Assembly (NCBI GenBank): GCA_016720685.1
Contig: JADKKC010000007.1
Span: 15,426 to 79,425 of the forward strand
Length of the DNA stretch: 64,000 nucleotides
Direction: 5' to 3'
From: Zoogloea sp.
GTDB taxonomy: Bacteria > Pseudomonadota > Gammaproteobacteria > Burkholderiales > Rhodocyclaceae
The translations under genes were made by a program, and so were the position numbers. Under the pieces are notes generated by a model. The model was not told where the DNA came from. It saw only the letters and a list, made by a program, of their open reading frames with translations, and made no database searches. Below, piece by piece: positions 31,988 through 62,652 of this stretch (its first letter is position 1; each line of letters starts with the position of its first letter).

Positions 31988-33810
31988 AAACCGTTCTCAC
32001 ACTTTGCACAGCCCTGCTGGGGCTGGGCGCGCTGCTCGCCGGCCCTGCCGCAGCCGAGGAGGCCCCCGAGGCGCGGGTCATCGTCAAGCTCAAGCCAGGG
32101 TCACCGCTCAAGCAGATCCAGGCCACCAGCCGGATGAAAAGCCTGGGAGAACGCATCGGCATCACGGCAAAAATGCTCGGCCAGCCCTCGCCCGAACTCC
32201 AGGTGATGCGCGCCAGCGGCATCAGCTCCGAGGCCCTGGCAAGCAGGCTATCCAGAGAATACGACGTGGAATACGCGGTGCCCGACCGCATCAAGCGGAT
32301 CAAGGCCCTGCCCAATGATCCGCTGTTCAGCCACCAGTGGTACCTGCAGGCAGCCAGCCCCACCCAGCTCGCCGCCACCAACGCCCAGGCGGCGTGGGAC
32401 ATCACCTCCGGCACCAGCAACGTGGTGGTTGCGGTGGTGGATACCGGTGTGCGCTTCGAGCACGAGGACCTGACCGCCAAGCTCTTGCCAGGCTACGACT
32501 TCGTGCTCGACGACCTTAACTCCGGCGACGGCCAGCCCGGCCGTGACACCGACGCCTCGGACCCCGGCGACTACCTGTCCACCTCCGATGTCGCCAACGC
32601 CACCCTGCGCGCCATGTGCGGCGGCAGCTTTGCAACCCACAACAGCTCGTGGCACGGCACCCAGGTTGCCGGCATCGTCGCGGCAGAAGCCAACAATTCC
32701 CGCGGCATCGCCGGCATTGGCGGCGCCACCCGCATCCTGCCGATTCGCGCGCTCGGCAAATGTGGCGGCTACGACTCGGACATCATCGCCGGCATGCGCT
32801 GGGCCGCCGGCCTTGCGGTGCCGGGCCTCCCCGCCAACCCGAATCCAGCCCGGATCATCAACCTGAGCCTGGCCGGTGAAGGCACTTGCAGCTCCGCTTA
32901 CGCCAGCGTCGTCGCCGAAATCAGGGCGGTGGGCGCCTTGATCGTGGCGGCCGCCGGCAACGAAACCAGCCCGGTCGAAGAGCCCGCCAACTGCGCCGGC
33001 GTCCTCGGCGTGGCCGGCATCCGCCACATGGGCACCAAGGTGGGCTATTCGAGCTACGGCCCCGAAGTCGGCATCAGCGCCCCGGCCGGCAACTGCGTCA
33101 ACATTCTTACCGGCCAGCCCTGCCTGTTTCCCTTCGTCAATACCATCAACCTGGGCCTGAACGGCCCGCTCGGCAACGGCTACACCGGCGTCAACGACGT
33201 AACGATCGGCACCAGCTTTGCCGTGCCGCTGGTGTCGGGCACGGCCGCGCTGATGCTGGCGGCCAATCCCCTGCTCGGCGAATCCGAGCTGATGGCGCGC
33301 ATCAAGCGCGCAGCCACGGCCTTTCCCGTCGATGCCACCCTGCCCACCTGCCCCGCCGTAACGGCTGACGGCCAGTGCAACTGCACCACCACCACCTGCG
33401 GCGCCGGCATGCTCGATACCGCCGCCGCCGTGGCGCTGGCCCTCGAACCCACAGCCGGCATCACGGTATCCGCAGCGCCCGTCGTCAACACGGCAATCAC
33501 CCTGACCGCAGCCTCCAACGTGTCGCCCGTGAGCTGGCAATGGATCCAGATCAGCGGCCCAGCCACTGGCAGCTTCGGCTCGCCTGCGGCAGCAAGCACC
33601 ACCTTCACCGCCACGTCGGCCGGCAGCTACACGATCCGCCTGACGATCACAGACGCGATCGGGCGCACGACCAGCGCCGACGCCAGCCTCACCGTTGCAT
33701 CCGCCCCGTCCTCGGGCGGCGGCGGAGGGGGCGGCGCCACCGATCTCGCCAGCCTCACCGGCATCCTCGCGCTGGCGCTCTTCGCGGCAAACCGGCGCAA
33801 CCGGGCCTGA
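31984..33810 (+). CDS. secreted S8 family serine peptidase (subtilase) with N-terminal propeptide and GlyGly-CTERM-like tail
   Basis: ATG at 31984 gives a signal peptide, followed by a propeptide (RVIVKLKPG...). The catalytic triad contexts are VAVVDTGV, HGTQVAGIVAA and GTSFAVPLVSG. The C-terminus has a poly-Gly run, a hydrophobic helix (LTGILALALFAA) and a basic end (NRRNRA). Confidence 0.9.
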   Translation: MKTVLTLCTALLGLGALLAGPAAAEEAPEARVIVKLKPGSPLKQIQATSRMKSLGERIGITAKMLGQPSPELQVMRASGISSEALASRLSREYDVEYAVPDRIKRIKALPNDPLFSHQWYLQAASPTQLAATNAQAAWDITSGTSNVVVAVVDTGVRFEHEDLTAKLLPGYDFVLDDLNSGDGQPGRDTDASDPGDYLSTSDVANATLRAMCGGSFATHNSSWHGTQVAGIVAAEANNSRGIAGIGGATRILPIRALGKCGGYDSDIIAGMRWAAGLAVPGLPANPNPARIINLSLAGEGTCSSAYASVVAEIRAVGALIVAAAGNETSPVEEPANCAGVLGVAGIRHMGTKVGYSSYGPEVGISAPAGNCVNILTGQPCLFPFVNTINLGLNGPLGNGYTGVNDVTIGTSFAVPLVSGTAALMLAANPLLGESELMARIKRAATAFPVDATLPTCPAVTADGQCNCTTTTCGAGMLDTAAAVALALEPTAGITVSAAPVVNTAITLTAASNVSPVSWQWIQISGPATGSFGSPAAASTTFTATSAGSYTIRLTITDAIGRTTSADASLTVASAPSSGGGGGGGATDLASLTGILALALFAANRRNRA

Positions 33811-33900: not shown

Positions 33901-33916
33901 CTGTTTATTTATACAG
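33901..33916 (+). promoter_or_regulatory. perfect LexA (SOS) box CTGTTTATTTATACAG
   Basis: Exact CTGT-N8-ACAG with an AT-rich spacer. It ends 7 nt before the dnaE2 ATG. A TTGCCT -35 candidate lies at 33889..33894. Confidence 0.85.
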
Positions 33917-33923
33917 TCAACGC

Positions 33924-36900
33924 ATGTCCGCTGATCCGCGTCCTCCTGCACCCGGTTTTGCCGAGCTCTACGCCCGATCCTGCTTCAGCTTTCTCACCGG
34001 CGCATCCCACCCGGAAGAACTGCTCGAGCAGGCGGCAAGCCTGGGCTACAGCGCCCTGGCCATTACCGACGAATGTTCGCTGGCCGGCGTGGTGCGGGCC
34101 TACGCGGCCTGGCGCCATACGCCGGACGCCCCAAAGCTGATCATCGGCAGCAGCATCCGGTTTGAAAACGGGCCAACGCTGGTGCTTCTAGCCACCGACC
34201 GCGCCGCCTACGGGCAGCTCTCAAGCCTCGTCACCCGCGGGCGGCGGGCGGCCGACAAGGGCAACTACCGCCTCACCCGCCTCGACCTCGCCCGTGGCCT
34301 GCCCGGCTGCCTGGCGCTGCTGGTGCCGCCGGATCTCATCGATCCCGATCCGCACACCCTCGCCACCGACGCCCGCTGGCTGGCCGAGCGCTTTCCCGAC
34401 GCCTGCTGGCTCGCCGCCCCGCTCCACCTGGGGCCGGACGACGCCACCCGGCGCCGCGGGATCAAAGCCGCGGCACAATCCGCCGGCATCCCGGTTGCCG
34501 CCACCTGCGCGCCGCTGATGCACACGGCCTCGCGCAGGCGCCTGGCCGATGTCCTCACCGCCCTGCGCCACCGGGTCACCCTCGACGAGGCCGGCTACCT
34601 GCTCGCCGCCAACGGCGAACAGCGCCTGCAGCCCCGCGAAATCCTCGCCCGTCGCCACCCGCCCGAATGGCTCGCCCAAACCCTCGCCATCGCCGAGCGC
34701 TGCCATTTCTCGCTGGCCGAGCTGCGCTACGAATACCCTCAGGAGATCGTGCCGCCCAAGGCCACGCCGGCCTCCCACCTGCGGGCACTGGTCGGCCACG
34801 GGCTGCGCCACCGTTATCCGCCCGGCCCCGACGGGCACCCGCAGGTGCCCTCAAGCGTCCTGACCCAGGTGGAAAAGGAACTCGCCCTGATTGCAGAGCT
34901 AGGCTACGAAGCCTTCTTCCTCACCGTCGAAGACATCGTCCGTTTTGCCCGCAGCCGGGGCATCCTGTGCCAGGGCCGCGGCTCGGCGGCCAACTCGGTG
35001 GTGTGCTATGCGCTGGGTGTAACGGAAGTCGACCCCGGCGAAGCCAGCCTGCTCTTCGAGCGCTTCATCTCCCGGGAGCGCAACGAGCCACCCGATATCG
35101 ACGTGGATTTCGAACACGACCGGCGCGAAGAAGTCATCCAGTACATCTACACCAAATACGGCCGCGACCGCGCCGCGCTGGCCGCCACGGTGATCCGCTA
35201 CCGCCCCAGGAGCGCCCTGCGCGACGTGGGCCGGGCGCTGGGCTTCGACGTCGGCCAGCTCGATCAGCTCACCCGGCGCCTCGCCTGGTGGGACGGCCGC
35301 CAGGTGGCCCCCGAGCGCGTCCGCGAAGCGGGCCTCGACCCGGACAGCCCGCGGGTGCGCCTGCTGCTTGAACTGGCCAACGAAATCGTCGGTTTTCCCC
35401 GCCATCTTTCCCAACACGTGGGCGGCTTTGTGATCTCACGCGGGCCGCTGGCCGAACTGGTGCCCGTCGAAAACGCCGCAATGGAAGGCCGCACGGTCAT
35501 CCAGTGGGACAAGGACGACATCGAAACCCTGGGCCTGCTCAAGGTGGACGTGCTGGCCCTCGGCATGCTGTCGGCGATCCGCCGCAGCCTGCAACTCGTC
35601 TCCCGCTGGCGCGGCCAGCCTTTCGCGGTGGCCGACATTCCCCGCGAAGTACCGGCGGTGTACGACATGCTCTGCGCCGCCGACGCGATGGGCGTCTTTC
35701 AGGTGGAATCCCGCGCCCAGATGAGCATGCTGCCGCGCCTCAGGCCGCGCTGCTATTACGATCTGGTGGTGGAGGTGGCCATCGTGCGACCGGGGCCGAT
35801 CCAGGGCGGCATGGTCCATCCCTACCTCGGCGCCCGCGAAAAAATCGCCCGCCACGAACCCATCGTCTATCCCCGCCCGGAGATCGAGCCCGTGCTGCGG
35901 CGCACCCACGGCGTGCCGATCTTCCAGGAACAGGTGATGCAGCTGGCCATGGTGGCCGCCGGCTTCAGCGCCGGCGAGGCCGACCAGTTGCGCCGTGCCA
36001 TGGGCGCCTGGGGCCGCAAGGGAGATTTGCTGCGCTACCAGGAAAAACTCACCGCCGGCATGCTCGATCGCGGCTACGAGCGGGATTTTGCCGAGGCCCT
36101 GTGCCGCCAGATCCAGGGTTTCGGCAGCTACGGATTTCCGGAATCCCACGCGGCCAGCTTTGCATTGCTGGTGTATGTGTCCGCCTGGCTCAAGTGCTTC
36201 GAGCCGGCGGCGTTTCTGTGCGGGCTGCTCAACAGCCAGCCGATGGGCTTTTACGGCCCGTCGCAACTCATCCAGGATGCCCGTCGCCACGGCGTCGATG
36301 TCTTGCCCGTGGACGTGCAGGCCAGCGACTGGGCCTGCGGGCTTACGCCCGCGCCAGCCGCTGCCGCTCGCCCCGCGGCCCGCCTCGGCCTGCGGCTGGT
36401 CAAGGGCTTCAACCCGCAGGCCGCCGAACGCATTGCCCAAGCGCGCCGGCATGGCCCCTTTGGGTCGGTCGATGAACTGGCCCGCCGCGCCGGGCTATCC
36501 ACCACCGAGCTGCGCGTGCTGGCCGTGGCCGGTGCGCTGTCCAGCCTGGCCGGGCACCGGCGCCAGGCCCTGTGGGCCGCAGCCGGCAGCCAGGCCGCGC
36601 CCGGCATGCTCCACGATGCGCCGATTCCCGACACGCCTCCGGCCCTTGCCGCGCCGGCCGAAACCCAGGATCTCCTTGCCGACTACGCCCGCCTGGGCTT
36701 CAGCCTCGGTCGGCATCCCCTCAGCTTTCTGCGCGGCCTGCTTGTGGCCGAACGTTTTTTGAGTGCGGCCGAGATTGCCGACTGCCCCGACCGCAAACTG
36801 GCCCGCTGTGCCGGCATCGTCACCTGCCGCCAGCGCCCCGGCACCGCCAAGGGCACAATGTTCGTCACCCTCGAAGATGAAACCGGCTGGGTCAACGTCA

Positions 36901-37076
36901 TCGTGCGGCCCGAACTCCTTGAAGCCGAACGACGCATCCTGCTTGGCGCCACCCTGCTCGGCATCTACGGCCAGATCACCCGCCAGGGCAGCGTGGTGCA
37001 CCTGCACGCCAAACGGGTGGTCGACCGCTCCGCCCTGCTCGGCCACCTCGCCACCCGCAGCCGGGATTTTCACTGA
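33924..37076 (+). CDS. dnaE2: error-prone DNA polymerase DnaE2 (ImuC)
   Basis: 1050 aa. The N-terminal PHP domain reads FAELYARSCFSFLTGASHPEELL. The length is typical of DnaE2 rather than DnaE1. It has its own SOS box, and imuA/imuB are in the same window. Confidence 0.95.
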   Translation: MSADPRPPAPGFAELYARSCFSFLTGASHPEELLEQAASLGYSALAITDECSLAGVVRAYAAWRHTPDAPKLIIGSSIRFENGPTLVLLATDRAAYGQLSSLVTRGRRAADKGNYRLTRLDLARGLPGCLALLVPPDLIDPDPHTLATDARWLAERFPDACWLAAPLHLGPDDATRRRGIKAAAQSAGIPVAATCAPLMHTASRRRLADVLTALRHRVTLDEAGYLLAANGEQRLQPREILARRHPPEWLAQTLAIAERCHFSLAELRYEYPQEIVPPKATPASHLRALVGHGLRHRYPPGPDGHPQVPSSVLTQVEKELALIAELGYEAFFLTVEDIVRFARSRGILCQGRGSAANSVVCYALGVTEVDPGEASLLFERFISRERNEPPDIDVDFEHDRREEVIQYIYTKYGRDRAALAATVIRYRPRSALRDVGRALGFDVGQLDQLTRRLAWWDGRQVAPERVREAGLDPDSPRVRLLLELANEIVGFPRHLSQHVGGFVISRGPLAELVPVENAAMEGRTVIQWDKDDIETLGLLKVDVLALGMLSAIRRSLQLVSRWRGQPFAVADIPREVPAVYDMLCAADAMGVFQVESRAQMSMLPRLRPRCYYDLVVEVAIVRPGPIQGGMVHPYLGAREKIARHEPIVYPRPEIEPVLRRTHGVPIFQEQVMQLAMVAAGFSAGEADQLRRAMGAWGRKGDLLRYQEKLTAGMLDRGYERDFAEALCRQIQGFGSYGFPESHAASFALLVYVSAWLKCFEPAAFLCGLLNSQPMGFYGPSQLIQDARRHGVDVLPVDVQASDWACGLTPAPAAAARPAARLGLRLVKGFNPQAAERIAQARRHGPFGSVDELARRAGLSTTELRVLAVAGALSSLAGHRRQALWAAAGSQAAPGMLHDAPIPDTPPALAAPAETQDLLADYARLGFSLGRHPLSFLRGLLVAERFLSAAEIADCPDRKLARCAGIVTCRQRPGTAKGTMFVTLEDETGWVNVIVRPELLEAERRILLGATLLGIYGQITRQGSVVHLHAKRVVDRSALLGHLATRSRDFH

Positions 37077-57293: not shown

Positions 57294-59093
57294 ATGATTC
57301 GCGGCTTTATTGATTTCGACAATCTCGACCGGACCCTGGTCTTCGATCGCCTCCCCCTGGATCAGGGCATCTCGCTGCCCGGGCTCAAGCTTGAACTGGG
57401 CGGCACCGGTATCGGTGTGTTTGCCCGCAACCATCAGGCCCTGCTCGTCCTGGGCCAGCCCCGCATCCGTGATGCAGGCCTCGCCGGCCTCGTGGAACGC
57501 GACGGCTGGGCCGCGTCGATTCCGCAGCTGTGCGACGCCCCCGATGAATTCCTCGGCAAGCTCGCAGGACGTTTTGCCCTGCTCTGGCTGGATACGGCAA
57601 AGGGAAAGATCGGCTTTGCTTCCGACCGCTTCAATACTTACGGCTTCTGCTATGCAAGCGAAGGCCGCCGCCTCAGCTTTGCCGACAGGGCCAACGAAGT
57701 GCCAGCCCTTGAGCGGGAACTCGACCCCCAAAGTATTTTCGACTACCTCTACTTCCACACCATTCCAGCGCCCGGCACCATTTTCAAGGGTGTGTTCCGG
57801 CTGGAGCCGGGCGCGCGCCTGGTGGCCGACCGGGAGCGCACCCAGCTTGCGGCGTGGTGGCAGCCGCGCTTCGACGAGCCTTCCGACGCCGACTTCAAGA
57901 CCAGCGTCGACTCGTTCAAGAGTCTGATCAAGACGGCCATCGAACGCGAGCTGGATGGCACCCCGGTGGGCGCCTTCCTCTCCGGCGGCACCGACAGCTC
58001 CACCGTCGTCGGCATGCTCAGCCGCAGCGGCAACCCTGTCACCGCCTATTCGATCGGCTTTGAAGCCGAAGGCTACGACGAGATGGAGTTCGCCCGGATC
58101 GCCGCCAAGCATTTCGGCGTCACGCACCGACCCTATTACATTACTTCGGACGACCTCGTCGCCAACATTCCGGCAGTCGCCGCGTCCTACGACCAGCCTT
58201 TCGGCAACTCGTCGGTACTTCCGGCCTACCTGTGCGCCAAGCTCGCCCACGACGACGGCTTTGGAAAAATGTTTGCCGGTGACGGCGGCGACGAACTGTT
58301 CGGCGGCAACACCCGCTACGCCAAGCAGCGCGTGTTCGGGTACTACGAAAAGGTACCCGGCCTTATCAAGGGCGGCCTGCTTGAACCGGTCATCATGCAG
58401 ACGCCGCTGGGCAAGCTGCCCCTGATGCGCAAGGCCGCCAGCTACATCGAGCAGGCCAACACCCCGCTTCCCGACCGAACCGCACAGTACAACCTGCTCT
58501 ACCGATTGGGCATTGAAAACATTTTTCCCGCCACGCTGCTTGCGGGCGTGGATACCGAAGCACCGATCCGTCTCCAGCGACGCGTCTGGCAGGGTGTCAA
58601 TGCCCACGCACTCGTCAACAAGATGCTCGGCTTCGACTGGCGCTTCACGCTGGCCGACAACGATCTTCCCAAGGTCATCGGCAGCGCCCGACTCGCCGGC
58701 ATCAACGCCATCTTCCCGCTGATCGACGACGACCTCCTGGATTTCTCGCTCAAGCTGCCGCCGGAATACAAGCTCAAGGGTCTGCAGCTACGCTGGTTCT
58801 TCAAGGAAGCGCTGAAGGATTTCCTGCCGCCGGAAATCATCACCAAGAAGAAACAGGGCTTCGGCCTGCCCTTCGGGCACTGGGTATTGAAGAATCCGGC
58901 CCTCGAAAAGCTCGCACGCGAATCCGTCGACATTCTGGTCGAGCGCAACATTCTGCGCAGGGAGTTCGTTTCCGAGCTATTCACCACTCACCTGCCGGCC
59001 TTCCCGGGTTATTACGGCGAAATGGTGTGGATTTCGATGATGCTGGGGCAGTGGCTGTCCCAGCACGCGCCTTCCGCAAAGGCATCATCCTGA
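57294..59093 (+). CDS. asparagine synthetase B family protein lacking the N-terminal Cys nucleophile
   Basis: PP-loop FLSGGTDSS and the asparagine-synthase C-terminal domain. The most plausible start, MIRGFIDFDN (57294), has no Met-Cys. The frame is open upstream to 57012, so the start is uncertain. Confidence 0.75.
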   Translation: MIRGFIDFDNLDRTLVFDRLPLDQGISLPGLKLELGGTGIGVFARNHQALLVLGQPRIRDAGLAGLVERDGWAASIPQLCDAPDEFLGKLAGRFALLWLDTAKGKIGFASDRFNTYGFCYASEGRRLSFADRANEVPALERELDPQSIFDYLYFHTIPAPGTIFKGVFRLEPGARLVADRERTQLAAWWQPRFDEPSDADFKTSVDSFKSLIKTAIERELDGTPVGAFLSGGTDSSTVVGMLSRSGNPVTAYSIGFEAEGYDEMEFARIAAKHFGVTHRPYYITSDDLVANIPAVAASYDQPFGNSSVLPAYLCAKLAHDDGFGKMFAGDGGDELFGGNTRYAKQRVFGYYEKVPGLIKGGLLEPVIMQTPLGKLPLMRKAASYIEQANTPLPDRTAQYNLLYRLGIENIFPATLLAGVDTEAPIRLQRRVWQGVNAHALVNKMLGFDWRFTLADNDLPKVIGSARLAGINAIFPLIDDDLLDFSLKLPPEYKLKGLQLRWFFKEALKDFLPPEIITKKKQGFGLPFGHWVLKNPALEKLARESVDILVERNILRREFVSELFTTHLPAFPGYYGEMVWISMMLGQWLSQHAPSAKASS

Positions 59094-59145: not shown

Positions 59146-60189
59146 TCAGGCCATCTGTTTCTTCAGCGCCGCAAGCTCCACCAGCGTCTCGGCAAGCGCC
59201 GATTCGGCCCGCTGGGCGCGAGCGGTTTCGGCAAGACGAACTTCCTCCACGGCGCGGGCCCGCGCCTCGGCCGCGGCAACGGCAGACTCCTTGCCGTGGG
59301 CAGCCTCGCTGGCCGTCTTCAACTGAACCTGCAGACGTTCGATGCGCCCCTCGGCGGCGGCGAGCGAGGTCTCGATCTGGCGCGTACGGGACACCGCTTC
59401 GCGCAAGGCCGCACGTGCCTCCTCGGTTTGCTCGCGCTGGCGAGTCTCCCGCTCTTCCCGGTTGGCCAGTTGCTGGCGCATGGCGATGATGTCGGACAGT
59501 TTCTCCTGGCGCGCCAGGTCAACCTGCTTCAGCAACATTTCGCGTTCCTGGGCGCTACGGTCCTGCTCCTCTTTCAAGGATGCACCGTAGCGATCGCGGT
59601 CGGTTTGCAGGAGCCGGGTCAGCCGCTCGGATTCCGCTGCAAATTTCTGCTCGCGCACTTCGGCCGCGTCTTCAAGCTGCTTGAGCCGGTTCTCCAGCCC
59701 CTCCAGCTGACGCAGAAACTCCAGCGCCTGGCTGCGCAAGTCGGCGATGGTGCTGTCGCGGCTGAGCACAGCCTGCTCGAAGGATTTGACCTGCTGTGAG
59801 GCAGCGCCCGCCTCCACCTCAAGCTGCAGGATTCGATCCTGAGCCTGCCTGAGCTGGGCGCGAAAAGCTTCACGCTCCTGCTCCAGATCCTGACGCTGGG
59901 TCGCAAATATTTGATCGGCGTGCTGCAGCGACAGGGACCACACCTTGCCCATGAAGACATCCGCAGCCGAAACCAGCTCGTCCGGCATGCCCGGAATGCT
60001 CCGCTGGCGAAAGAAGGCCTCGCCGGTTTCGCGACGCCACTGATCGATGTAGCGCTGGACGATCTCGCTCGAGCCCTTGTTGCCAAGCTCGGCGTACACA
60101 AGGTTGAACGAAGGATTCTCTCCCTGGGAGAGCAACTGGAAGCAAATCTGCTCGACCGCCTCGAAAGAAACACTGCTGCTGCGCGCCAT
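59146..60189 (-). CDS. KfrA-like DNA-binding protein with long coiled coil
   Basis: 347 aa. The N-terminal ~90 aa (VSFEAVEQICFQLLSQGENPSFNLVYAELGNKGSSEIVQRYIDQWRRE) resemble the KfrA N-terminal DNA-binding domain. The rest is E/R/Q/A/L-rich heptad coiled coil. Confidence 0.65.
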   Translation of the reverse strand: MARSSSVSFEAVEQICFQLLSQGENPSFNLVYAELGNKGSSEIVQRYIDQWRRETGEAFFRQRSIPGMPDELVSAADVFMGKVWSLSLQHADQIFATQRQDLEQEREAFRAQLRQAQDRILQLEVEAGAASQQVKSFEQAVLSRDSTIADLRSQALEFLRQLEGLENRLKQLEDAAEVREQKFAAESERLTRLLQTDRDRYGASLKEEQDRSAQEREMLLKQVDLARQEKLSDIIAMRQQLANREERETRQREQTEEARAALREAVSRTRQIETSLAAAEGRIERLQVQLKTASEAAHGKESAVAAAEARARAVEEVRLAETARAQRAESALAETLVELAALKKQMA

Positions 60190-60329: not shown

Positions 60330-61560
60330 TTACTTTTGCCCAACCCACGGGAGGCGCTGCTTTTGCGCTTCGTCGTGCCAGCGTTCTTCTTCTTCGTGGA
60401 TATAACGTTGAGTCGTGCGAGCATCGGTATGCCGCGCATCCTTCTGCACAAAGCGCTCGTCAATACCGCTGTCGAGCTTGGCAGTGATGCCAGTGTGACG
60501 CCCCCAGTGGGCTGACGCCGCGCGCAGCTTTTCCTTCTTGTGTTCCGCGTCCGGCGGCAACAAATCAGCGGCCGCGCTAAAAATTTTCTTGAGAATCTGG
60601 TTCAGCCGGCGGGCCGTGATCGGGCTGCCATCCTTTACCGAAACAAGAATGGGCGTCGTGTCGTCACGCCGGGGCACAGCGCTAAGGCCAAGGTATTTAC
60701 GGTAGCGGATCAGCGCCTGCAGCATGTCATCGGCGACCGGCACCTTTGCCTTCTTGCCACCTTTGCCCACCACGTGCCACCACCACAGCCCCCGCTCTTC
60801 GCGAAAGCTGTTCATGCGGTGAGTCTCCAGCTCGCCGGCGCGGGGCGCCAGCATGTAGAGCGTTGCAGCAAGGAAGCGCGCCCGCTCGTATTCGTCGCGC
60901 CCCCGTTCGGCATCACGCGGCATGGCCTCAATGGCGGAGGTCACGGCATCCCACATCTGCTGGTCGAGAAAACGCTCGATCTTGTCGACTTCATCAGTGC
61001 TGACCACGGCGCGCAATGCCCCGGACGCCTCGGCAGACATCTTGCGGCGACGCTGACGGATCAGCCCGAGGGGATTGCCGAGCAGGTAGCCCGCATCCAC
61101 GAGATAGCGCATCAACGAATTGATCGCCGCCATGGCGGTCAATACGGCGCTCTCCACTCAGCGGCCCCACAAAGGGGCGCCACCTTTCGGTCGCCCTCTC
61201 GGCCTTGGGGCCGCACCACAGTGCAGCCGGCTGGGGGTCGGCAAGAAAGTTGAGATAACCCTCGAAATCCTGGCGGTTGAGACTGGAAAAGGGTTTGCCG
61301 CAGTCGATCAAAGACCACAGCAGAAGGCGCTCGCACTCCCGCTGGTAAATGCGCAAGGTACCGGGTGAGCGGTCGTACTCGACGAGAAAACAACGGATCG
61401 CATCGACGTCGCAGACGGCGGCAATCTGCAGCCGGGCAGGATCAGCCCGATTGTCACCGGCGCGCCCATCGAGTTCCGGTGGAATCGTCAACTCGTCAAG
61501 GGGCCGCAGGGGAACAGGCATTGCAACACGGGTTTGCGGAATGGCAGGCGACGTTTTCAT
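60330..61560 (-). pseudogene. tyrosine site-specific recombinase / integrase, 1-nt-class frameshift
   Basis: The N-terminal SAM-like domain (MKTSPAIPQ...DAIRCFLVEYDRSPGTLRIYQRECERLLLWS...WRPFVGPLS) is in ORF 60994..61689, starting from the ATG at 61560. The catalytic domain (…AHWGRHTGITAKL…ARHTDARTTQRYIH, with HxxR and Tyr) is in ORF 60330..61157. The frames switch at about 61150..61162. Confidence 0.8.
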
Positions 61561-61642
61561 GGCGCTGAGTTTACCCCGGCAGCCGCGAACGACAGCTGAC
61601 GGCCGCAGCTTGTCCGACGAAGATCTTGCATCCGGGTGAATA

Positions 61643-61658
61643 CTGTATATAATAACAG
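61643..61658. promoter_or_regulatory. perfect LexA (SOS) box CTGTATATAATAACAG overlapping two divergent -10 elements
   Basis: Exact CTGT-N8-ACAG. The rightward promoter is TTGCAT (61626..61631)-N16-TATAAT (61648..61653). The leftward promoter is TTGCGT (61673..61668)-N16-TATATA (61651..61646). Confidence 0.8.
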
Positions 61659-61755
61659 CTATCGAGAACGCAATGACAGCATCGGCCACCGGCCAACATC
61701 ATGAGGCGTTCAGTCTTCTGCCCTGCCGGGCACCAACACCTTTGCGAAGGAGTCG

Positions 61756-61962
61756 ATGATGGAAACCCTGATCTGCCGGATGCTGATGTTGAGTGGAGTG
61801 CTTGTGGGCGTGTTGCTGGCCAGCGACCAGGGTGAGCAATCCCTGGTGCCGGCGCTACTGGCGCTGGTCGGCGCCGCCGTACTGCGCCAGGTAGCGCCCT
61901 CGCTCCCGTGGCGCCTCAGTCATGGCAATGGCCGCTACGGCTCCCGCTATCCGCGCTATTGA
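61756..61962 (+). CDS. hypothetical small membrane protein (67-68 aa) downstream of an SOS-box promoter
   Basis: An AAGGAG RBS (61747..61752) precedes ATGATG. There are two hydrophobic segments (LMLSGVLVGVLLA and LVPALLALVGAAVL) and a basic tail. No homology recognised. Confidence 0.4.
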   Translation: MMETLICRMLMLSGVLVGVLLASDQGEQSLVPALLALVGAAVLRQVAPSLPWRLSHGNGRYGSRYPRY

Positions 61963-62652
61963 TTACCGCCGGGCAGCACGCGCCTTGCGCTCGGCCTGGA
62001 TCATTCCGGCAATGTCGGTGTTGCGGTATTTAACGGCCCAGCTTTCGGCGGTTTCTTTCTGATCGTTTGCCAGATCAAGGTTTGCACCGGCCTTGAGCAG
62101 GCGTGCCACCACCTCGCCATGTCCGTTGCGCGCGGCGAACATCAGCGGAGTGCTCCTGTTGGGAGCCAGCGTATCGATGTTTGCGCCCTTGTCGAGCAAG
62201 AGGCCGACAATCGCCGCGCGCCCTTCGAAGGCAGCGTAGAGCAGCGGGTTCCAGCCCTCATGGTCAAAGGCGGCACCAGCTTTCAGCAGTTGATCGACGA
62301 CTCCGGCATGGCCCCGCAAGCTGGCCAGCATCAGGGCGCTGTCGCCCGCAGCGTTTCGGGCATCCAGCTTGATGCCGCGCTGCTTCACCAGCTCGGCCAC
62401 CACCGCGGGCTGATCTTCCCGGGCAGCCAGAATCAGCAGCGTGTTGCCGCTCTGGTCGGTGGAGTTCGGATCCATGCCGCGAGCGACCAGCTGAGCCACT
62501 TCAGCGGAATCGCCAAGCTTGGCTGCATTAAGCAGATCATCCAGCGAGACGGCTGCAGCAGGCAGAGCCAGATGCAGGCTGACAAGCGCCACGGCGAGGG
62601 CACGCACAGAAACAGCAGGAAAGACGGAGCGAATGCGAGCGACAGGTTTCAT
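61963..62652 (-). CDS. secreted ankyrin-repeat protein
   Basis: Signal peptide followed by 4-5 ANK repeats (GNTLLILAA..., GDSALMLASLRGHAGVVDQLLKAGA, NPLLYAAFEGRAAIVGLLLDKGA, STPLMFAARNGHGEVVARLLKAGA). Confidence 0.85.
   Translation of the reverse strand: MKPVARIRSVFPAVSVRALAVALVSLHLALPAAAVSLDDLLNAAKLGDSAEVAQLVARGMDPNSTDQSGNTLLILAAREDQPAVVAELVKQRGIKLDARNAAGDSALMLASLRGHAGVVDQLLKAGAAFDHEGWNPLLYAAFEGRAAIVGLLLDKGANIDTLAPNRSTPLMFAARNGHGEVVARLLKAGANLDLANDQKETAESWAVKYRNTDIAGMIQAERKARAARR

Follow-up and report, generated by a model that had tools for sequence, protein, structure and literature searches.

The DNA analyzed here is a stretch of 64,000 nucleotides (nt) from Zoogloea sp. (GenBank assembly GCA_016720685.1, contig JADKKC010000007.1, positions 15,426 to 79,425), referred to below as the window, and its subject is an intergenic region in which a palindrome of the LexA (SOS) type, CTGTATATAATAACAG, lies between two divergently oriented genes. 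On the plus strand, a gene at 61759..61962 encodes a 67-amino acid (aa) protein with two predicted membrane helices. On the minus strand, a gene at 60330..61560 encodes a tyrosine recombinase (int), and its 3' partner at 59146..60189, also on the minus strand, encodes a KfrA-like DNA-binding coiled-coil protein with a match to KfrA_N. An earlier note on this DNA had proposed that the single box places both the integrase and the small membrane peptide under SOS control. All of the elements listed there, namely the box, both pairs of promoter hexamers, the AAGGAG ribosome-binding site (RBS), the open reading frame (ORF) of 67 or 68 aa and the recombinase start at 61560, were recovered at the positions assigned to them. 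The comparative analysis described below favors a different division of labor, in which the palindrome probably belongs to a LexA-repressed promoter that drives the small membrane protein, with the recombinase standing apart under a proximal promoter of its own.

A Putative LexA Operator over the Promoter of the Small Gene

The palindrome (61643..61658, unstranded) has the form CTGT-N8-ACAG, which occurs twice in the 64-kilobase (kb) window against an expectation of 0.48, both sites being intergenic with AT-rich spacers. The other site, CTGTTTATTTATACAG (33901..33916, likewise unstranded), is located 8 nt 5' of the start codon of a dnaE2-like gene (1050 aa); since dnaE2 is a classical SOS gene, this site serves as an internal positive control, indicating that the motif is in use in this organism. 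For comparison, 75 loci with an orthologous recombinase were collected by a scan with one genome per species. A box occupies the equivalent position in 32 Zoogloea-type loci including the window, of which 29 are perfect and 3 have one change; among the fetched loci, a perfect CTGT-N8-ACAG is present upstream of the recombinase in 28, where it is almost always the sole such site in the 13-kb locus, and three more differ by one end base. With its position kept across Zoogloea loci and the same motif found ahead of dnaE2, the perfect LexA box called in the earlier note has proved real. In the clade of L014 and L018, a second perfect box, CTGTACTTGCGTACAG, is found about 23 nt away from the main one, where it covers the -35 of the promoter for the small ORF, and L015, L017, and L024 contain a second box one base off this sequence. 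No box was found ahead of the recombinase orthologues in the remaining 43 loci, all of which lie outside the Zoogloea group and which include Methyloversatilis, Sterolibacterium, Georgfuchsia, Sulfurisoma, Burkholderiaceae, and Variovorax. Other CTGT-N8-ACAG matches (in L021, L072, L037, and L047) were discounted, their spacers being GC-rich and a promoter context being absent.

Toward the small ORF, the box is embedded in a predicted promoter whose parts are conserved in an alignment of 31 loci. Its -35 element is cTTGCAT (61625..61631, plus strand), with the core CTTGC kept in 30 of the 31; in the window, TTGCAT (61626-61631) is followed after a 16-nt spacer by the -10 element TATAAT (61648..61653, plus strand), which lies within the box at constant spacing to the -35. 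Further downstream on the same strand are the block TATCGA (61660..61665), which marks the predicted +1 region with a start at approximately 61660-61661, and the RBS AAGGAG (61747..61752), whose core GGAG is identical in all aligned sequences. The conserved blocks of the intergenic spacer are limited to CTTGC, the box with TATAAT, TATCGA, AAGGAG, ATGGAA, and, near the recombinase, AGTTTA. The 16-nt stretch between CTTGC and TATAAT is free to vary in sequence and fixed in length, which is the signature of a genuine promoter toward the small ORF, and the box lies 87-106 nt from the small-ORF ATG in all loci. A generic promoter scan called neither of the two promoters proposed for this region because each -35 matches TTGACA at only three of six positions. 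Nevertheless, the rightward promoter was borne out by comparison, with CTTGC, TATAAT, RBS, and ORF conserved over about 30 Zoogloea species.

Judged by the standard for operators of the Beta/Gammaproteobacterial LexA type, the site combines a palindrome with an AT-rich spacer, overlap with the core promoter, conservation at orthologous positions, and occurrence of the same motif ahead of dnaE2. A role as a LexA operator is therefore strongly supported, with putative binding over the -10 element and start of the small-ORF promoter; the box spans both the conserved TATAAT and the predicted +1 of this predicted promoter. From that start, the transcript would have a leader of about 98 nt. RNAalifold applied to 19 leaders returned no consensus structure, a GCCC...GGGC leader hairpin could not be aligned consistently across the leaders, and the single-sequence fold of the leader was not significant (z = -0.81). 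Rfam gave no match, there was no sign of an antisense RNA gene, and the generic scan found no terminator.

The dnaE2-type error-prone polymerase gene and its own LexA box together occupy 33901-37076 of the window. Neither imuA nor imuB is present upstream of it, where a subtilase gene ends at 33810. In L016, a locus of the Z. ramigera type, a dnaE2 gene is located only about 3 kb past kfrA.

An Orphan Two-Helix Membrane Protein

The small ORF extends from 61756 or 61759 to 61962, corresponding to 68 or 67 aa. The start at 61756 is usable in some species only, and the second ATG (61759) is the sole conserved start with proper spacing to the RBS. The earlier note had allowed that the small ORF might turn out not to be conserved, but 30 of 31 loci have it intact, and in L019 it is truncated. 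Lengths range from 53 to 68 aa, and the variation is limited to the C-terminal tail. The median pairwise ratio of nonsynonymous to synonymous substitution rates (dN/dS) is 0.16, the numbers of extra states at codon positions 1, 2, and 3 are 50, 34, and 132, respectively, and the invariant residues include E2, C6, R7, G13, G17, P31, R43, P47, and P50. To judge from this pattern of substitution, the small ORF is a real gene.

AlphaFold2 modeling, for which 28 sequences were used, yielded helices at residues 2-22 and 30-48 followed by a disordered basic tail, with a mean predicted local distance difference test (pLDDT) score of 64, in agreement with the two hydrophobic helices that had been read from the ORF at the outset. 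The helices are joined by a short Gly/Gln-rich loop; the first transmembrane helix (TM1) contains a GxxxG motif, and an invariant APSLPWR motif and the basic tail follow the second (TM2). A location in the inner membrane is predicted and strongly supported. No meaningful match to the small protein was obtained in Pfam, NCBIfam, or PHROGs, and it has no homology to TisB or DinQ. A word-based search retrieved 11 relatives, and a profile search of 1.84 billion representative proteins gave 10 matches. Within the reach of these searches, the family is an orphan under purifying selection, confined to Zoogloea-like Rhodocyclales. A divergent small hydrophobic ORF in Methyloversatilis was rejected as a further member, as it represents the N-terminus of a 937-aa Mrp antiporter subunit.

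At its 3' end, the small gene meets a convergent ankyrin gene (ank), the stop codons of the two abutting at 61962/61963 with no terminator predicted between them. Given this arrangement, SOS-induced transcription would enter the ank-tatD-pilZ operon in antisense orientation.

Genomic Contexts of the Small Gene

The order pilZ-tatD-ank-small ORF-recombinase is kept in 30 loci of Zoogloea and close relatives, in most of which kfrA lies downstream of the recombinase; gene content past kfrA is variable. A second context was found in L078 (homologue P0136) and its genome-level counterpart L030, where a recombinase with 76% identity, a box, and the small ORF occur together between other flanks, comprising a DinG-like helicase gene and ApbE, and without kfrA or ank-tatD. 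The layout there runs from the recombinase through TAAACT-N7-ATG and a promoter TTGCTA-N16-TATACT containing the box CTGTATATACTTACAG to an RBS and the small ORF. The third context is the metagenome contig L079 (1269-1654), in which a 47-aa homologue of the small ORF (P0137) lies 51 nt 3' of a tandem pair of boxes, CTGTCTATTTTTTCAG and CTGTATATCTGTACAT, each with one mismatch. The homologue is oriented divergently to a gene for an SOS response-associated peptidase (SRAP), a member of an SOS-associated gene family, and is followed by tRNA-Thr; no recombinase is present. The trio of box, small ORF, and integrase, which the earlier note had suggested seeking in related genomes, is thus found in Zoogloea-type loci and in L030/L078, and in L079 the integrase is missing. 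As all three contexts share the small ORF with LexA-type boxes, the box appears to go with the small gene.

A 17-nt direct repeat (59061-59077 and 61974-61990, 16 of 17 positions identical) surrounding kfrA, int, and the small ORF was considered as a pair of element ends and rejected. It is a chance match, since 24 related loci lack it, L001 with its 97% identity among them; no conserved direct repeats marking element ends were found.

The Recombinase Gene

The identification of the minus-strand gene (60330..61560) as a tyrosine recombinase was confirmed by a PF00589 score of 46.5 bits against a cutoff of 27.1 for its C-terminal part, and by the catalytic R, K, H-x-x-R, H, and Y residues, which can be aligned with those of XerD and do not vary among 13 orthologues. 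What had been missed is that the gene is split by a one-base insertion at 61154 into segments 61560-c.61150 and 61157-60330, so that its reading frame is not intact in the window. Over the junction, orthologues with an intact frame (402-425 aa, identity up to 98%) have the sequence ...FVGPLSESAVLT..., which implies that the window has one extra base. The extra base is one C of a "cc" on the plus strand, and it is missing in six of six other assemblies that cover the site at about 99% identity to the window (contigs from four DNA or cDNA metagenome runs and two metatranscriptomes). By this comparison, the frameshift belongs to this assembly alone and represents an error or a rare allele.

Within Zoogloea, pairwise distances of the recombinase follow those of TatD, PilZ, and Ank with r = 0.70-0.83, a correlation as good as that among the three themselves, and its mean distance is 0.112, compared with 0.135 for TatD. 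Correlated and low distances of this kind indicate that the recombinase has co-diverged with the flanking core genes under strong constraint, and across L001-L075 it looks like a domesticated recombinase. Across Rhodocyclales and Burkholderiales, identity of the 410-aa protein amounts to 70-90%, and its conservation exceeds that of TatD: when Zoogloea is compared with Sterolibacterium (L034), the recombinase is 80% and TatD 64% identical. The recombinase stands as a solo gene in contexts that differ but are genus-stable; in Methyloversatilis, for example, it lies between an Mrp antiporter gene and an operon of the MbnB/DUF692 type for a ribosomally synthesized and post-translationally modified peptide.

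A Probable Proximal Promoter for the Recombinase

The leftward promoter previously proposed for the recombinase (61646..61673, minus strand) consists of TTGCGT (61673-61668), a 16-nt spacer, and TATATA (61651-61646). These hexamers are present in the window, but the claim that they drive the recombinase gains no support from the 31-locus alignment. There, TTGCGT is not kept as a -35, neither length nor sequence is constant from the box to the recombinase start, and a different element, of the form TAnnnT, is found close to the gene. In the window, this element is the -10-like hexamer TAAACT (61568..61573, minus strand), 7 nt 5' of the recombinase ATG; read on the plus strand, it is the conserved AGTTTA, which stands 6-7 nt from the CAT of the recombinase and gives TAAACT-N7-ATG when read on the minus strand. 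In 39 of 74 loci, an in-frame recombinase ATG is preceded at 6-8 nt by a TAnnnT hexamer, compared with a background of 0.4% per position, and no Shine-Dalgarno sequence was found ahead of the ATG in these 39. Zoogloea-type loci have TAAACT or TACACT as this hexamer, and other genera have TAAGAT, TAGAAT, TAATAT, TAACAT, TAAAAT, or TACAAT. With this spacing, transcription of the recombinase would begin at the ATG itself and yield a leaderless mRNA, and the recurrence of the arrangement suggests that the gene has its own proximal promoter and a leaderless transcript across genera. The center of the box lies about 90 base pairs (bp) upstream of this putative start, a distance too great for simple occlusion by a protein bound at the box.

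RNA Contigs from Metatranscriptomes

RNA evidence, itself weak, was taken from contigs of metatranscriptome assemblers, which are unstranded and from which strand and exact 5' ends cannot be read. On the small-ORF side of the window, contigs from 10 runs begin at 61632, 61648, 61663, 61674, 61685 (three runs), 61703, 61713, and 61803, and on the recombinase side, contigs from seven runs end at 61522, 61525, 61541, 61544, 61546, 61563, and 61635. In L016, small-ORF-side contigs end 31-65 nt inside the predicted start; on the recombinase side, contigs begin 13-20 nt after the ATG in two runs and at the box, with a depth of about 3.5, in two others. Across the two species, the abundant small-ORF-side contigs stop 3-65 nt inside the predicted start and leave the box uncrossed. 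Contigs on the small-ORF side are 4-12 times as deep as those on the recombinase side (for example, 54.9 versus 4-6, 42.5 versus 3.4, and 39.7 versus 3.5), and in two further libraries, contigs cover the whole window region. The overall pattern fits divergent promoters separated by a gap, with starts near 61660 for the small ORF and near 61560 for the recombinase.

Relation to Plasmid Recombinase-KfrA Modules

Relatives of the recombinase at 38-40% identity are common on plasmids (1921 matching records). On six plasmids, five from Burkholderiaceae and one from Aquicella, the recombinase is paired with a gene annotated as a DNA-binding protein, and all three of the plasmid partner proteins tested matched KfrA_N. 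This pairing indicates that the int-kfrA pair of Zoogloea is the chromosomal descendant of a plasmid module. Pairs on plasmids and megaplasmids of Burkholderiaceae, such as P. phymatum pBPHY02 and C. basilensis pRK1-2, share with it the recombinase family, at 38-40% identity over full length, and the adjacent KfrA_N DNA-binding coiled-coil protein. Unlike the plasmid pairs, the Zoogloea recombinase is chromosomal, co-diverged with its flanks, and co-directional with kfrA. The upstream regions also differ: Zoogloea has the LexA box and the small ORF, whereas int-kfrA modules of the plasmid type (L003, 10190-11468, and the upstream regions of L080-L085) have the palindrome GACATTAT-N4-6-ATAATGTC, which is probably their own operator. 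No LexA box was found ahead of ten plasmid recombinase homologues. A 38%-identical paralogue in Z. oleivorans (L003, 10281-11468) with CTGTCGAAATATACAG upstream was considered as a second LexA-boxed integrase and rejected, because CTGTCGAAATATACAG is built on the GACATTAT...ATAcTGTC palindrome typical of plasmid int-kfrA modules.

Proposed Mechanism and Competing Explanations

In the arrangement that we consider probable, LexA bound to the box would block RNA polymerase at the rightward sigma70-type promoter. Upon DNA damage, RecA-stimulated self-cleavage of LexA would free this promoter, giving a transcript with a leader of approximately 98 nt and a strong AAGGAG site, from which the 67-aa inner-membrane protein would be translated. 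The protein may then act as an SOS effector at the membrane, a damage-checkpoint factor of the SidA/SosA/YneA kind that would delay division through a membrane partner. Among the roles considered, a checkpoint effector is the most likely by analogy, as the GxxxG motif and the proline-rich motifs after TM2 are pointers to a protein partner and to checkpoint-type action; a membrane-depolarizing toxin or a holin-like function would be the alternative. The recombinase, as a plasmid-type and KfrA-associated enzyme, would be transcribed from TAAACT 7 nt before its ATG as a leaderless mRNA, and is most probably not primarily under the control of the LexA box.

Several observations weigh against this arrangement. 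Two contigs of low depth reach 12-28 nt beyond the predicted start of the small-ORF transcript on its upstream side, RNA over the small ORF may partly represent antisense read-through from the converging ank-tatD operon, and the apparent expression of the small ORF in untreated sludge is not low, a poor fit to tight SOS repression. The putative leaderless promoter consists of a -10-like hexamer alone, with no -35 conserved, the structural model of the small protein is of only moderate confidence at a pLDDT of 64, and the checkpoint role is an analogy without homology.

The explanation originally advanced, in which a single LexA dimer bound at the box would keep both divergent promoters repressed and DNA damage would thereby induce the recombinase jointly with the membrane protein, now appears doubtful. 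Control of the small ORF stands to the extent that the box covers its promoter, and LexA control of integron integrases provides a precedent for the other half (PMC3108266). A minus-strand TATATA, or an extended -10 TGnTATTAT, within the box could give a start at approximately 61639-61642 and a leader of about 80 nt; one recombinase-side RNA contig extends to 61635, two low-depth contigs of L016 reach the box, and the trio of recombinase, box, and small ORF is kept in two genomic contexts, the second being L030/L078. A distal transcript of the recombinase would be compatible with the few contigs that extend as far as the box. However, most recombinase-side contigs end at or before 61563, and those of L016 that reach the box begin farther upstream than any start available to a -10 within it. 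The leftward -35 is unconserved and the spacer between box and recombinase variable, and a conserved -10-like element adjoins the recombinase ATG. Moreover, orthologues of the recombinase in 43 loci and ten plasmid homologues do without a box, and the small ORF of L079 has boxes without an integrase. A more elaborate form of joint control, quite unlikely on present evidence, holds that the 67-aa protein is the SOS checkpoint effector of Zoogloea-like Rhodocyclales, unrelated to SulA, SidA, YneA, and SosA and functionally coupled to the co-inherited, domesticated recombinase of plasmid type via a shared LexA-controlled divergent region; if this were true, DNA damage would elicit a membrane-level arrest and a site-specific recombination event together.

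The small ORF could also be the relic of a lysis or toxin gene (of a class II holin/pinholin-like or type I toxin kind) from a mobile element that brought in the recombinase as well, without host function. Two transmembrane helices, a length of about 60-68 aa, and a basic C-terminal tail form a holin-like layout, the gene adjoins a recombinase of mobile-element type, and the pair is present in two genomic contexts. Such an origin is nonetheless very unlikely for a gene that shows strong purifying selection and co-divergence with core genes over about 30 species. Its neighbors are ank, tatD, pilZ, int, and kfrA, with no endolysin or phage genes nearby, and the lack of matches in PHROGs, Pfam, NCBIfam, and Rfam, of a significant leader structure, and of any sign of an antisense RNA gene likewise argues against it. 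Highly improbable, finally, is the idea that the palindrome is kept only because it holds the -10 element, or that it serves as operator for the recombinase, KfrA, or some other protein rather than as a LexA site. An AT-rich -10 must indeed be kept in any case, and plasmid homologues have a different palindrome, GACATTAT...ATAATGTC, at the same relative place; yet the conservation reaches the outer CTGT/ACAG arms, which the -10 does not need, the same motif stands ahead of dnaE2 in the window, and in one clade the -35 is covered by a further perfect CTGT-N8-ACAG. In L079, in addition, the small-ORF homologue is joined to SRAP and two near-consensus boxes. The LexA-repressed promoter of the small gene, with an independent recombinase, accordingly remains the reading that we prefer.

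Comparison with Known Systems

Small LexA-controlled toxins of the membrane are known from E. coli, where TisB/IstR-1 and DinQ/AgrB are type I systems whose toxins have 27-29 aa and one helix. The Zoogloea gene resembles them in that its promoter has a LexA box, its product is a small hydrophobic peptide of the inner membrane, and its leader is about 100 nt long; it differs in the length of its product (53-68 aa), its two helices, the lack of sequence similarity, and the absence of a detected antisense RNA or structured leader. It thus lies outside the type I toxin-antitoxin class, which is marked by a toxin of at most about 50 aa, a single helix, and an RNA antitoxin. The topology is compatible with class II holins and pinholins, but neither an endolysin or phage lysis context nor a PHROGs match was found.

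SOS-induced small membrane-bound division inhibitors include SidA of Caulobacter, SosA of S. aureus, and YneA of B. subtilis, and the related DidA is damage-induced but SOS-independent (PMC6851548, PMC13396833, PMC4211646, PMC6051672). The Zoogloea protein has the hallmark of this class, namely a small membrane protein behind a predicted LexA-controlled promoter, and shares with SidA, SosA, and YneA a small size, lineage restriction, a LexA operator on the promoter, and the lack of an enzyme domain. It has no sequence similarity to them, however, and possesses two helices with both ends predicted inside, whereas they have one transmembrane helix with an outside domain; any likeness in effect on division would be one of analogy. 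A LexA box has also been described in the promoter of the integron gene intI (Cambray et al. 2011, PMC3108266). Like intI, the Zoogloea gene is a tyrosine recombinase divergent from a neighboring promoter region that holds a LexA box. The enzyme is not IntI, scoring 24.9 bits with TIGR02249 against a cutoff of 265, and the conserved promoter faces away from it. No attI/attC cassettes and no repeat structure were found at the locus, where the box is followed by a single ORF and then the convergent ankyrin gene. The remark in the earlier note that neither protein could be recognized as a member of these named families agrees with the missing homology to TisB and DinQ and with the TIGR02249 score below cutoff.

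Implications

LexA-controlled small membrane proteins are already known as a kind, and the lineage-restricted family described here is new. With it, the SOS regulon would gain an orphan two-helix membrane protein kept under selection in about 30 species. Beside it, a plasmid-type, KfrA-associated recombinase has been retained on the chromosome, where it evolves slowly and its mRNA is probably leaderless, which raises the question of its role. Zoogloea is a key floc-forming bacterium of activated sludge, and we know of no study of its DNA-damage response. Given that LexA-controlled small membrane proteins have repeatedly proved to be division inhibitors or persistence toxins, the small protein makes a good candidate for this lineage's missing effector.

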